A DNA stretch of 10,627 nt from Candidatus Thorarchaeota archaeon (GCA_003345545.1 PRDH01000018.1:1-10627), one strand, 5' to 3'. Shown: positions 3,032-9,487, counted from the first letter of the stretch. Numbers and translations: made by a program. Notes: generated by a model from the letters alone, not told the origin.

Positions 3032-4267
3032 TCAATCATAACCGAGTTTGGGCACACGAGCCAAGAAGTTCATGAAATAGCCTATCAGTACGGACACAAC
3101 AAGACCAGCAGTAGTGGTCAAGAGGATTGTGGCCCAGTCAGGCGTGGCTCCGCCAATAATCTGCATCCATGACCAATAGACTCCAGCCAGGGTCATGCCA
3201 GAGAATGCCACCTTTTTGAGAGGGACCTTAACGGACTTCGTCTGGAGCACACCCATATCTACGAGGGCACCGGATAGAGCTCCAGCCTTGTCGGGCTTCA
3301 AGTGAAGCCTCTTTCCAAGCTGACCGACTGTGACCTTTGACTTTGGTTTAATCATGTTCAGTGCCTTTGGAGCATACTCTGCTATATCCTGTGAGAAGAA
3401 GGTGATTGCATTTCCCGTGTCAATGCCACACTTGGAGCATGTAGGTGAGTTCTTTGGCCATTTCTTCCCGCACTTCGGGCATCGTTTGTTATCCCAAGAA
3501 CTTCCGGCAGCCTTACTGACTCTTGATACAAGTTCATTCTTGTCAATCTTCTCACCGCCTTTCTTTGGCATTCGGCGAAGCACGACTGGCCGTGGGAATA
3601 TACCAACATCAGAACCTCGCGTCGCACCGCGCATCTTGCGGGCCGCCATGATTCCCTGCTGGAACTCGTCCAAGGACATGATCAGAGTGAACACAGACAT
3701 CACTGTGAAACCAACCGTAATGAGCCCGCTCACTGACAGAATGGCAGCAGTGCCCGTGGGCCCCAGCCGAAGAACAAAGTCCTCGCTAACCGTTCCGTTC
3801 ACACTAGGTGAGGTTGAGTTTGAATATACAAAGGAGAAGGCACCTGTGATTGTTCCTGAAATCAGACTGAGGTTTCCGACGCTCATGAGGCTAGCCAGTG
3901 GGATTGATGCGTTGAGAATGCTTGCCGTGTAGTTCTCAGGGATTTCGCCATACACGCTTAGGTCGAATAGTTGATTGATAATCGGAATCGAAAGGTAGGA
4001 CATCGTGAACCTACCAGACTGTACTGTCAAGTTTGTGCCAGTATAGATTTGAAGTTCGATTGAAAGGTCAGAGGAAACATCTATTGGAATTGGATTTGCA
4101 GCATCAGACTCAGCGGCGTTCACTCCGTTGACCTCAAGCAGAAATGATAGACTTGAATCCCCACTCCATCCGACAGGGGGGGCAGCGTTGACAGGCATAA
4201 AAACCATAGTCCATAGAAGACAGGTTATGGTAAAGACAACAAGAAAGTGTGGTAGCGTTCTCTGCAA
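3032..4267 (-). CDS. Uncharacterised membrane protein: signal peptide, ectodomain, TM, zinc ribbon, winged-helix-like domain, 2 C-terminal TMs
   Basis: 411-aa ORF with TTG start, GGAGGT RBS at 4280-4275 and triple stop TGA TAA TGA. Hydrophobic N-terminus ending VNA|A. Hydrophobic segments at aa ~175-199, ~353-372 and ~379-402. Contains CPKC-x10-CSKC. Confidence 0.85.
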   Translation of the reverse strand: MQRTLPHFLVVFTITCLLWTMVFMPVNAAPPVGWSGDSSLSFLLEVNGVNAAESDAANPIPIDVSSDLSIELQIYTGTNLTVQSGRFTMSYLSIPIINQLFDLSVYGEIPENYTASILNASIPLASLMSVGNLSLISGTITGAFSFVYSNSTSPSVNGTVSEDFVLRLGPTGTAAILSVSGLITVGFTVMSVFTLIMSLDEFQQGIMAARKMRGATRGSDVGIFPRPVVLRRMPKKGGEKIDKNELVSRVSKAAGSSWDNKRCPKCGKKWPKNSPTCSKCGIDTGNAITFFSQDIAEYAPKALNMIKPKSKVTVGQLGKRLHLKPDKAGALSGALVDMGVLQTKSVKVPLKKVAFSGMTLAGVYWSWMQIIGGATPDWATILLTTTAGLVVSVLIGYFMNFLARVPKLGYD

Positions 4268-4368
4268 TCACTAGACCTCCAAGAGCCGCAGACTGGAAAA
4301 CATCACGAACTACTCCCTTTAACTCTTATTGAGAGAAATAGTCTGCCACTGTATGCAACTCTTCTCGG

Positions 4369-4734
4369 TCACTGCTTTCCACCCAGCGACTCCTTGATCT
4401 CTCTATCGAACTCCTCGTCGTCATCCGTTTCATATATGATGTGGCTCTTGCGTACAGGCTCCACAGGAGGAGTCCAATTATAGAATAATCCGAGAATCGC
4501 TCCACCTAGGACTGAGAGAGAAGACAACAAGACCGTAAATGTCGAGATTGGGACGACGTAGGCAAGCGGAATGAGTAGAATCACACCGCTAATGATGCTG
4601 AGTATGAGAACGAGTGCAGCTCTTCGAGCAATTCCATAACTTCTCATCGTACCTATGGAATACCCAAGCATCACTCCAAGAAGAATGCTGGGAAGAATCA
4701 CAGTTGAGATTTCCAAGGTATTGATTGGCTGCAT
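4369..4734 (-). CDS. Small hypothetical membrane protein (3 TM, acidic C-terminal tail)
   Basis: 121 aa with three hydrophobic stretches and the tail YETDDDEEFDREIKESL. GAGGAG RBS upstream of ATG 4734. Confidence 0.8.
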   Translation of the reverse strand: MQPINTLEISTVILPSILLGVMLGYSIGTMRSYGIARRAALVLILSIISGVILLIPLAYVVPISTFTVLLSSLSVLGGAILGLFYNWTPPVEPVRKSHIIYETDDDEEFDREIKESLGGKQ

Positions 4735-7352: not shown

Positions 7353-7826
7353 CTAGAGTCTATGTTTCACGTCAAGCTCATCGATGCGATTTCGTAATTG
7401 GTTCAAGACGACCTCCCATTCCTCCAACTGATTTTGAATCTCAGCCGCAATGTCGGTTCTTGCTTCTTCTTCTGCAATTGCCGCCAGCTTTGCAAGTTCA
7501 GTGTGCAGTGTTCTTCCCTCATCGTAAAACGTTTCTGCGAGGACGAGCTGGTATGAGATTGGATTAAAACCATGCATGGCATTGCTCACATACCAGACTA
7601 GACTGTTCCGCTGAGACAGCACCGATTCGTCATAGAGAGCCCACACATCTCTGCACTTCATTCGTGCACCCAGTTGGGTGGCTATTATCAACAGAATCAT
7701 CAATACTGCAGCGGAAGCCACTACAAGTAGACTGGATTCAAAGACGCCGACAATCGCCAAGGCCCCAGTCAATAAGAGAGCAAGGTGTGAAATCACACGA
7801 AACATAGCTTCAGTTCTCAACCTCAT
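7353..7826 (-). CDS. Hypothetical membrane protein (2 N-terminal TMs, C-terminal helical/coiled-coil region)
   Basis: 157 aa with two hydrophobic segments at aa ~11-52, a heptad-like C-terminus, and GAGAGG immediately upstream of the ATG. Confidence 0.75.
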   Translation of the reverse strand: MRLRTEAMFRVISHLALLLTGALAIVGVFESSLLVVASAAVLMILLIIATQLGARMKCRDVWALYDESVLSQRNSLVWYVSNAMHGFNPISYQLVLAETFYDEGRTLHTELAKLAAIAEEEARTDIAAEIQNQLEEWEVVLNQLRNRIDELDVKHRL

Positions 7827-7894: not shown

Positions 7895-8785
7895 CTACGG
7901 CTTTTTTCTCTCCGAATCTCGAAAAAGATAGTCTATCACACTCTGCCAGATAGTACCATCATTGCGTGCCTTGTTTTCGAAGTTATTTGTGTTAATCCAT
8001 TCAGCAAGAGCTGCCTTAGCCCGTTCAGGGAATACTTCGTTACTGAGTGCATCTAAGTATCCTAACGATACGAGAGCATGCTGAATCCTGATGGAGAGGT
8101 CTCCCTCAATCCTTCGCAGGTTGCTCGGTTCTTCCCTGCTGAGAAGCGTCATGTCGTATATCTTGAAAATGCGCTCAAGCTCTTTGATGGGGCTAGGATG
8201 TTCATCAACGCGAACGTCGACGTACCGATCATTTCCACCCTCATAGCCACCCTCTTTTCGTACAACAAGTATTGCAGCAGACTGCATCCCCCGACGATCC
8301 CCTCCAGCAGACTGTCCTGCGTTGAGCGCAGCAAAGAGCTTGTCGATTATATCACCGTCAGTCGTTTCATATGCACTGGCCATATTGGCTACCACATCTT
8401 CGCCAGCCAAGATGTTGCCCTGACAGGTGAAGCCTTTTCCGACAAGATGGCCAGCCCAACTCATACACTCCTTGCCGGTGTGTGCAACAACACGACCTTT
8501 TCGGTCTACGATACCGACTTGTCGATGCTGTGCACCTGCATCATCCTTCAACATGCTTCTCAGAGTCTGAGAAGCACTCTTACCTGCCGTGAGAAGATCT
8601 AATCCTCTTGGGCCATAGGACACGTTAGCCCAAGCCTGTGTTGCAACAGCTCCAGCCTCTGCCCTAGCCCATGGAACAACAGAACCCACGGCTGGGAACT
8701 TGGACTGGACTATGACTCCAAAATCGCCATTGGAGGGGTCCCGAGCTACGACCGAGAAAGTCGATGGATGACCAGAACCGACCAT
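7895..8785 (-). CDS. DUF1028 family Ntn-hydrolase-like protein with C-terminal putative peptidoglycan-binding-type domain
   Basis: Motifs TFSVVARD, AVGSVVPWARA..GAVATQA, RQVGIVD, HTG..C..WAG, QGNIL, AGGDRRGMQSAA and DVRVDEHPSPI.EL.R. C-terminal L..LGY...AL..W...NFE. Start likely ATG 8785, with GGAGG upstream. Confidence 0.9.
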   Translation of the reverse strand: MVGSGHPSTFSVVARDPSNGDFGVIVQSKFPAVGSVVPWARAEAGAVATQAWANVSYGPRGLDLLTAGKSASQTLRSMLKDDAGAQHRQVGIVDRKGRVVAHTGKECMSWAGHLVGKGFTCQGNILAGEDVVANMASAYETTDGDIIDKLFAALNAGQSAGGDRRGMQSAAILVVRKEGGYEGGNDRYVDVRVDEHPSPIKELERIFKIYDMTLLSREEPSNLRRIEGDLSIRIQHALVSLGYLDALSNEVFPERAKAALAEWINTNNFENKARNDGTIWQSVIDYLFRDSERKKP

Positions 8786-8986
8786 ATCTTCGTGTTCCTC
8801 CTTGTAGTGCAAGGCAATTGGGCCAAAGACTCCTATTTAGAGGGTCCGATTCTCAAGCGATGCTGAGAGTCCATCGGACTTGAGCCACTCGTACAAGTAT
8901 TGGCTAAAGTATGATTGAGATGAAGGCTATTCCTTTTTATGGAGGCATTCCATGGGCAAGTGCGACCCGAGTAGCATGGGAGGAAC

Positions 8987-9487
8987 GTGATAGTGGTATC
9001 CGAGATATTCATCAGGTATGAAACAGCTACCGGCCTCGAAAAGACGGCAAGGTTCAGATCGGATGAAACAACAATCAACTTGGACTTGAGGAACATAGCC
9101 TCAGTCGATCTACTTCCGATTATCTGGTGTGAAAACCTCGAATGCCTCTGTTTACGAAATAACGCCCTTGCTGAAATCGACCTCTCAGCCCTTGAGAAAG
9201 CCGGCAAGAAACTGAAATCAATCAGATTGAATCACAATCGTCTTCAAGAAATGGATTTAGGCCCTCTCAGCTCATGCCCGAATCTTGAAGAAGTGAATCT
9301 GGAGAATAATAGACTGAAACGTATTGATCTATCGCCACTCTTTCAGTGTGCGAATCTCAAGGAGCTTGCCATTGACAAGGACGTTGGGTTGACTGCGGAC
9401 CTCCTGCTCAGGTCTGTCGGCAGCTGGCCAGAGGTGCTTGTGGAACGATATCACAAGATCCTTTGGAAAGCTAGCTCGACCGAATGA
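8987..9487 (+). CDS. Leucine-rich repeat protein (IDLSPL-type LRR)
   Basis: About 4.5 repeats of 23-24 aa with consensus LxxLxLxxNxLxxIDLSPLxxCxN. GGGAGG RBS before the GTG. T-rich TATA-like TTTTTAT at 8934-8940. Confidence 0.9.
   Translation: MIVVSEIFIRYETATGLEKTARFRSDETTINLDLRNIASVDLLPIIWCENLECLCLRNNALAEIDLSALEKAGKKLKSIRLNHNRLQEMDLGPLSSCPNLEEVNLENNRLKRIDLSPLFQCANLKELAIDKDVGLTADLLLRSVGSWPEVLVERYHKILWKASSTE

Follow-up and report, generated by a model that had tools for sequence, protein, structure and literature searches.

The minus strand of a 10,627-nucleotide stretch of DNA from a Candidatus Thorarchaeota archaeon (GCA_003345545.1 PRDH01000018.1:1-10627; hereafter the window) carries, at positions 3032-4267, a gene for a 411-residue membrane protein. 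This protein appears to combine known folds in an undescribed arrangement, namely a membrane-tethered winged-helix protein in which a Cys4 zinc ribbon and a winged-helix-like unit would lie between transmembrane (TM) helices. Our best reading, which we offer tentatively, makes it a coupling or adaptor protein that resides in the membrane and works at the membrane face. Five elements form the pattern behind this proposal: a highly conserved inner and intramembrane part, a variable and exchangeable outer part, universal presence at low copy number, a conserved small candidate partner gene and invariant polar residues in the TM helices. These features match a stable membrane assembly in which a cytoplasmic platform binds something at the membrane face. 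The features are as follows, with the evidence for each in parentheses.

3032..4267, minus strand: whole gene, 411-residue membrane protein (open reading frame (ORF) list and translation; more than 200 full-length homologs in Thorarchaeota)
4275..4280, minus strand: GGAGGT ribosome-binding-like site (sequence read directly)
4184..4267, minus strand: signal peptide, residues 1-28, with putative cleavage between VNA and A (hydropathy, conserved V/A-x-A, AlphaFold2 (AF2) helix 5-22)
3746..4183, minus strand: predicted extracellular Ig-like beta-sandwich, residues 29-174, with six sequons (AF2, VIA, sequon statistics)
3671..3745, minus strand: TM helix 1 (TM1), residues 175-199 (hydropathy, AF2)
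3482..3670, minus strand: basic juxtamembrane linker, residues 200-262 (alignment conservation, AF2 secondary structure)
3419..3481, minus strand: Cys4 zinc ribbon, residues 263-283 (invariant Cys, sub-cut-off Pfam score, PDB profile matches)
3218..3418, minus strand: helix and winged-helix-like unit, residues 284-350 (AF2, VIA, ESM Atlas)
3059..3217, minus strand: likely C-terminal TM hairpin, residues 351-403 (AF2, hydropathy, conservation)
4369..4734, minus strand: 121-residue protein with three TM segments and an acidic tail, candidate partner (alignment, co-occurrence, adjacency)

The reading frame itself is well defined. The plus strand of 3032-4267 contains many stops, whereas the ORF list and translation of the minus strand give the full 411 residues, and all residue numbers in a preliminary description of this DNA fit that translation. 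The start codon is a TTG at 4267, with an in-frame TGA immediately before it and the GGAGGT element 7 nt to its 5' side. Homologs begin with methionine at the position of this TTG and share conservation over the first 20 residues. The gene ends in three successive stops (TGA, then TAA TGA). Internal stops flagged in short-paralog genes, including this one, were rejected as breaks in the genes, given that the match overruns into the triple stop. Scanning the locus for bacterial-type promoters and terminators yielded nothing informative.

It is useful to consider the membrane arrangement before the inner module, and for this we relied on hydropathy, sequence statistics and a full-length AF2 model built with a 29-sequence alignment (pLDDT 73). 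The N terminus has a hydrophobic core at residues 4-29, for which AF2 predicts a helix at 5-22 followed by a low-confidence stretch, and the proposed cleavage site reads V/A-x-A across homologs. TM1 spans residues 172-200 by hydropathy (Kyte-Doolittle (KD) mean 1.96), and AF2 predicts a helix at 179-212. At the C terminus, AF2 predicts two antiparallel helices (350-372 and 378-402), and a hydropathy segment covers residues 377-405. The KD means of these helices are 1.0 (353-373) and 1.66, and we call the hairpin likely rather than certain because the first of the two is only moderately hydrophobic. Both carry conserved polar residues (S366, Q369, S392 and Y397). Three membrane helices are therefore counted, TM1 and the hairpin pair, with the cytoplasmic module tethered at both ends.

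The ectodomain holds all six N-x-S/T sequons of the protein (N79, N112, N119, N132, N150 and N157), compared with a mean of 2.2 when its sequence is shuffled (P(>=6) = 0.008). The ectodomain likewise contains nearly all of the ~170 sequons counted in 29 homologs, with just 2 lying elsewhere, and individual sites are well retained (N157 in 28/29, N79 in 25/29 and N150 in 23/29). These asparagines are probably N-glycosylated, to judge from the sequons. Charged residues are distributed just as unevenly, with 30 K+R versus 12 D+E over residues 200-350 and 2 versus 12 in the ectodomain. The placement of sequons and of charges agrees with the AF2 model on a topology that would put the ectodomain outside and the zinc ribbon and winged helix inside. 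Thus the signal peptide of residues 1-28, the confinement of the sequons to the ectodomain, a TM helix near 175-199, the Lys/Arg-rich region that follows it, the terminal hairpin and the out/in topology, each proposed on first inspection, have all held up, with the hairpin at the strength given above.

Structurally, the ectodomain is predicted by AF2 to be a beta-sandwich at residues 34-168, with the strands at 40-168 modelled at a pLDDT of about 80. Its VIA matches are generic beta-sandwiches (RhoGDI, Z 10.8; Spo0M, 10.5; RbmA, 10.4) with many unrelated entries close behind, and Foldseek with the whole model returned generic Ig-like sandwiches alone (RhoGDI, PDE-delta, arrestin and complement MG domains). 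A TRAP subunit chain of 8b5l also matched (Z 10.3). We claim no relationship to TRAP because that match ties with unrelated sandwiches at a root-mean-square deviation (rmsd) of 12.7.

The zinc-ribbon motif C263PKC-x10-CSKC280 is present, and each of its four cysteines (C263, C266, C277 and C280) is kept without exception across 29 close relatives and 30 distant ones, which bears out the conservation anticipated for them. AF2 places short strands around the four cysteines. For the 411-residue protein, the match to Pfam Zn_Ribbon_1 reaches 20.9-23.4 bits, short of the cut-off of 25; a few homologs carry a precomputed PF13248 match, and profile matches in the PDB are to the ribbons of bL32 and eL43 (E 0.001-0.007). 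NCBIfam gave only chance-level zinc-ribbon matches. The Cys4 ribbon would bind zinc.

After the ribbon, AF2 predicts a helix at 284-296 and then helix 299-305, strand 311-313, helix 314-321, helix 325-337 and strand 341-346, which is the winged-helix order H-S-H-H-S. Folding the cytoplasmic domain alone with a diverse alignment gave a pLDDT of 75 and a pTM of 0.62. A Foldseek search of the PDB with this domain returned nothing at E<=0.001 (best E 0.73), and its weak list is rich in GntR, MarR and CRP winged helix-turn-helix (wHTH) domains, SWIRM and PCI-type units. VIA gave Z scores of at most 5.2 overall, with winged-helix entries at 4.0-4.8. For model residues 50-112, the winged-helix match of lowest rmsd is FtsK gamma (Z 4.4, 1.8 A, 49 residues), along with CUL1 WHB (Z 4.3, 2.7 A, 62 residues), CUL5 (Z 4.4) and Z-alpha (Z 4.2); low-rmsd matches also include the winged helix of SelB and that of a ROK-family protein. 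In the ESM Atlas, GntR, ArsR and IclR models match with TM scores by target of 0.51-0.64 and rmsd values of 2.3-3.1 over 55-60 residues, and a search of the Atlas by features with residues 200-411 produced no usable match.

Sequence profiles point the same way at low strength. Distant members give sub-threshold Pfam matches to FtsK_gamma (E 4.9e-4; 20.2 bits versus a cut-off of 30.6), MarR_2 and DUF2582; TFE, FtsK and SNF8 appear at E 0.1-0.7 against PDB sequences; and hhalign to Escherichia coli FtsK gamma places three helices in register at a probability of 23%. No Pfam winged-helix or wHTH family reaches its cut-off with the 411-residue protein or the distant members. We consider a winged-helix-like fold likely for residues ~299-346, and membership in any particular winged-helix family is not established. 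The winged-helix-like spacing first noticed at ~294-346 is therefore upheld in its predicted order of secondary structure at 299-346, but the structural matches are weak and the family profiles remain below cut-off.

Conservation is highest in the inner module. A word-indexed search returned 239 proteins; the top 120 show 63-94% identity, almost all of them over the full length, and those with named sources come from Candidatus Thorarchaeota and are labelled 'hypothetical protein' or 'zinc ribbon domain-containing protein'. An alignment of 29 homologs contains the invariant Cys4 plus many invariant cytoplasmic and intramembrane residues. Mean pairwise identity is 57% in the ectodomain, 77-81% across the linker, zinc ribbon and helix plus winged helix, and 80% in the TM hairpin. 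The linker alone (residues 200-262), for which AF2 predicts a helix to 212, a strand at 228-232 and a helix at 243-257, has 26/63 columns invariant at a mean identity of 79%. This difference between inner and outer parts, along with the invariance of polar residues inside the TM helices, fits a conserved intracellular and intramembrane interaction together with a freer outer face.

More distant relatives are few. When 1.84 billion representatives were searched exhaustively with HMMER, 44 proteins only were recovered, including relatives of ~470-550 residues with 23-28% identity and the parts in the same order. In most of these longer relatives, the last TM helix is followed by an acidic C-terminal tail, which can reach ~100 residues. 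Across 30 diverse sequences, the Cys4, the proline after the first cysteine and two tryptophans are invariant or nearly so. Another observation is a 1225-residue metagenomic protein (P0148, L022:8001-11678), labelled 'Ca-activated chloride channel family protein' by JGI, in which VWA and bacterial-Ig-like domains take the place of the small ectodomain while the module of TM helix, zinc ribbon, winged helix and TM hairpin is retained. Given that the same inner module occurs beneath a VWA and Ig ectodomain, it behaves as a transferable inner unit.

The phyletic range was surveyed by searching 301 genomes of the phylum with a family profile. Matches were found in 76/76 genomes of the organism's own taxonomic family, usually as one long form (~485-570 residues) and one short form (~405-450 residues) per genome. 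Four small families also match at weaker scores (2/2, 1/1, 5/5 and 1/1 genomes), two large families contribute marginal single matches (1/68 and 1/19 genomes), and the remaining families searched gave none (e.g. 0/28 and 0/21 genomes). This is a lineage-core family rather than a sporadic one.

The genome studied here carries one long paralog on contig 28 (12909-14300, minus strand; locus L005:1450-2904). Its 484 residues follow the same architecture and end in an additional acidic tail at the C terminus. A 144-residue gene that resembles a response-regulator receiver by eye lies 75 nt upstream on the same strand. The receiver gene was rejected as a feature of the family, given that, of the twelve other genomes compared, only the seven closest (60-79% identity) have it beside the long paralog. 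It was not found by tblastn in the compared flanks of the other five, including all ~49%-identical relatives. In genera g4, g13 and g14, a more divergent short form (375-407 residues) lies downstream of the small acidic-tail gene described below (e.g. G257:C3:72389-73114), with the first 230-260 profile positions matching at E 1e-33 to 1e-40. In one genome of this group (G143), two TGA codons fall within the C-terminal part of that form.

The small gene upstream of our protein deserves particular attention. At 4369-4734 on the minus strand, it encodes 121 residues with three hydrophobic segments and no Pfam match, and its conserved acidic tail reads K-S-H-I-I-Y-E-x-D-D-D-E-F-D-R-E-I (consensus K-(S/R)-H-(I/V)-x-(Y/F)-(E/D)-x-acidic run-F-D-R-(E/Q)-(I/L)-x-E). 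A profile of this gene finds one copy in each of 72 of the family's 76 genomes, and the rest of the phylum sample has none. By hand count from the coordinate lists of both profile searches, there are at least 66 pairs in which it shares contig and strand with the short paralog and immediately precedes it, mostly ~70-200 nt away. Three relatives (63-79% identity) conserve the upstream ferredoxin, acyl-CoA dehydrogenase, nitroreductase and small membrane protein genes, and the downstream genes differ between loci L001, L003 and L004. In a 41%-identical relative (L021) the nitroreductase is gone and the small gene is kept, with its stop overlapping the start codon of the homolog. The neighbourhood comparison suggested at the outset thus yields a conserved upstream side and a variable downstream side.

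In the flanks compared, long paralogs lack this neighbour but have their own acidic tail of ~100 residues. Because the short form is paired with a partner gene and the long form has a built-in tail, we suggest that the basic module may act in concert with an acidic tail. Complex prediction for residues 170-411 with the 121-residue protein scored 0.02 against a mark of 0.32, which counts neither for nor against the pairing. We regard the three-TM protein as a candidate partner, and the conserved adjacency is recognized here for the first time.

If the coupling or adaptor reading is correct, then the N-glycosylated, variable Ig-like domain would face outward and touch the cell surface or the surroundings in a way that varies between lineages. 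TM1 and the hairpin would clamp the cytoplasmic module (helix, Cys4 ribbon, helix, winged helix) at both ends, and a module clamped in this way must sit at the inner membrane face. There, the conserved platform would bind its partner at the membrane surface, which could be another protein or else something acidic, for instance the tail of the three-TM protein encoded alongside. The 411-residue protein would stay in the membrane, with no release step. The gene, its architecture, its pattern of conservation, its phyletic range and the gene pair are observed, and both the partner and the direction of any signal are matters that we infer.

Several points weigh against this proposal. The binding partner of the platform is only a candidate, and synteny within one taxonomic family is weak evidence, given that many neighbouring genes are conserved there too. 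The module is strongly basic in both the short and the long Thorarchaeal forms (net +7 to +18), and its best low-rmsd neighbours include the DNA or RNA binders FtsK gamma, Z-alpha and GntR/MarR. Furthermore, the fold statements are taken from AF2 models of moderate confidence (pLDDT 73-75).

It seems appropriate, then, to ask whether the module looks like a DNA reader. The module may bind nucleic acid, given that it is basic and that its structural neighbours include true DNA and RNA binders. The third helix follows the pattern x-x-A-G-(V/A)-(I/L)-(A/S/G)-(A/G)-A-(L/M)-V-D-x-G (AG..A.LVD.G) across the family. Conservation of the recognition helix was among the checks first suggested, and the pattern is indeed kept, but the putative recognition helix is dominated by Ala/Gly and hydrophobic residues, with few polar side chains at the usual base-reading positions. 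The net charge of the module, +13 over residues 236-350 here, falls to between -7 and +7 (neutral or acidic) in the most distant members, which keep the Cys4 and the winged-helix scaffold. Positive charge beside a membrane is also expected from the positive-inside rule. In addition, AF2 runs the wing directly into the next TM helix with no linker. Helix 3, the loss of charge and the linker-free wing together lower the odds of sequence-specific DNA recognition, which we regard as possible, as is non-specific binding of a polyanion by the module. A winged helix used for protein interaction is at least as likely as a nucleic-acid module.

The alternative that survives best is a one-component regulator like ToxR or CadC, in which the ectodomain would sense a cue and the clamped module would bind DNA at the membrane to control transcription. 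We consider this unlikely. Its appeal comes from the receptor-like layout, the predicted winged-helix order, the wHTH DNA-binding domains among the structural neighbours, the positive charge and the sub-threshold FtsK_gamma, MarR_2 and DUF2582 matches of distant members. What speaks against it, besides the failure of any wHTH family to reach its Pfam cut-off, the 23% hhalign probability and the non-polar helix 3 with its dispensable charge, is that the winged helix is tied to the membrane on both sides, with no linker on its C-terminal side. Also, a universal, syntenic, low-copy core gene (usually one per paralog type) is unlike the typical variable sensor, and no conserved target operon is evident, given the different downstream genes in L001, L003 and L004.

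The likeness to ToxR and CadC is that an outer sensor domain and a cytoplasmic winged helix share one protein that stays in the membrane. Those regulators, however, have an N-terminal wHTH of the OmpR family (Trans_reg_C), a flexible linker, a single TM helix and one free end. In the Thorarchaeal protein, the winged helix follows the ectodomain and zinc ribbon, is clamped between TM1 and the hairpin, and binds DNA only putatively; PF00486 (Trans_reg_C) has no match to residues 236-350 even at E<=1. The protein works most like membrane-integrated one-component regulators, yet it fails their defining features, having no OmpR-family domain and not being singly tethered.

Somewhat less probable in our judgement is a housekeeping tether, in which the basic platform of zinc ribbon and winged helix would hold a polyanion (chromosome, RNA or ribosome) at the membrane, with a function comparable to that of winged-helix proteins of the eukaryotic inner nuclear membrane or of the FtsK gamma domain. 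Universal presence and very high cytoplasmic conservation are consistent with such a role, as are the strong positive charge of both Thorarchaeal paralog types, the FtsK gamma match of lowest rmsd and the resemblance of the ribbon to ribosomal-protein ribbons, though this last is generic. The non-polar helix 3 and the loss of charge in distant members count against it here as well, and the positive-inside rule predicts the membrane-adjacent charge equally well. No MSC/LEM or FtsK family homology is evident among the Pfam matches listed, and there is no motor or other nucleic-acid domain.

These two comparisons can be stated more exactly. FtsK gamma is likewise a small winged helix on a membrane protein, but the profile signal comes from distant members only and remains below cut-off, the present protein has no translocase motor, and the DNA-contacting residues of FtsK gamma, as we take them to be, are not kept in it. 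A resemblance to the MSC/LEM2-type winged helix of the inner nuclear membrane is presumptive; MSC is absent from the 13 families listed for the 411-residue protein and from the 25 of 87 shown for other members (E<=1).

Rated on a par with the tether, and so equally doubtful, is an Asgard-lineage device in which the membrane-clamped module would bind chromosomal DNA or RNA and be gated by an acidic tail that serves as a nucleic-acid mimic. Gating would be performed by the tail of the three-TM partner or by the built-in tail of the long paralog. If true, the protein would either found a new archaeal class of transmembrane regulators of transcription or tether the nucleoid to the membrane, much as winged-helix proteins do in the inner nuclear membrane of eukaryotes.

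Improbable, in our estimation, is that the protein is a surface glycoprotein (an adhesin or envelope component) whose inner module is merely an anchor or assembly handle. A glycosylatable Ig-like ectodomain would suit this role, VWA and Ig-like domains such as those of the fused relative are typical of adhesins, and zinc ribbons beside TM helices (Pfam PF13240/PF13248 architectures) are common in uncharacterized envelope proteins. The inner module is the best conserved part and the ectodomain the least, however, which is the opposite of what a mere anchor should exhibit.

Release of a latent factor by regulated intramembrane proteolysis (SREBP or RseA logic), raised in its SREBP-like form in the preliminary description, is very improbable: cuts in the flanking TM helices could free the module, and the VWA-fused relative has a gene with a weak Peptidase_M50 match ~4 kb away, but two cuts would be required, the strong conservation of the TM helices and their polar residues resembles that of a stable assembly in the membrane, and the idea is left without support because no intramembrane protease gene was recognized among the scanned ORFs of the window or in the conserved neighbourhood, the rest of the genome not having been searched.

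Returning to the coupling or adaptor reading, the closest parallels for a protein-binding winged helix are cullin WHB, PCI and ESCRT-II Vps22/25 units, which offer comparable VIA matches, weak PCI and SNF8 sequence signals and a non-polar helix 3. They differ in being subunits of soluble complexes rather than clamped membrane modules, and the sequence similarity is not significant. Membrane proteins annotated as 'zinc ribbon domain-containing' (PF13240, PF13248 and DZR PF12773) also have a CPxC...CxxC ribbon next to a TM helix, on its cytoplasmic face, and NCBI gives several homologs this label, but it covers ~20 of the 411 residues and leaves the winged helix, hairpin, ectodomain and partner gene outside any described family.

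The initial impression that this architecture is not a described family is sustained. Pfam, NCBIfam and PDB searches gave no full-length match to a characterized family, Pfam and NCBIfam have no model for the family beyond the ribbon, and a full-text search of the literature found no description of a zinc-ribbon and winged-helix module held between membrane helices. An ESCRT survey mentions zinc ribbons and winged-helix domains in other proteins (PMC11188069).

Thorarchaeota are members of the Asgard archaea, to which eukaryotes have their closest known kinship, and to our knowledge almost nothing is known about how they link the cell surface to the interior. If the module binds nucleic acid, archaea would possess a new means of connecting membrane and genome; should it bind proteins instead, it points to a membrane complex that is core to this lineage. 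Either way, the analysis defines a family and a testable gene pair.

Other genes of the window were noted in passing. A short, 593-residue alanyl-tRNA-synthetase-like gene on the plus strand (224-2005) encodes a class II core and a second additional domain, and it stays near genes for a Zc3h12a-type RNase and an MBL-fold protein in relatives L001 and L021. On the minus strand, 7895-8812 encodes DUF1028 fused to a putative PG_binding_2 domain, in a neighbourhood kept in L001 and L004; as an archaeon, its host should lack peptidoglycan. Finally, genes for a 166-residue leucine-rich-repeat protein (8987-9487, plus strand) and a 157-residue membrane protein with no Pfam match (7353-7826, minus strand) are both conserved in relatives, where they lie beside one another.

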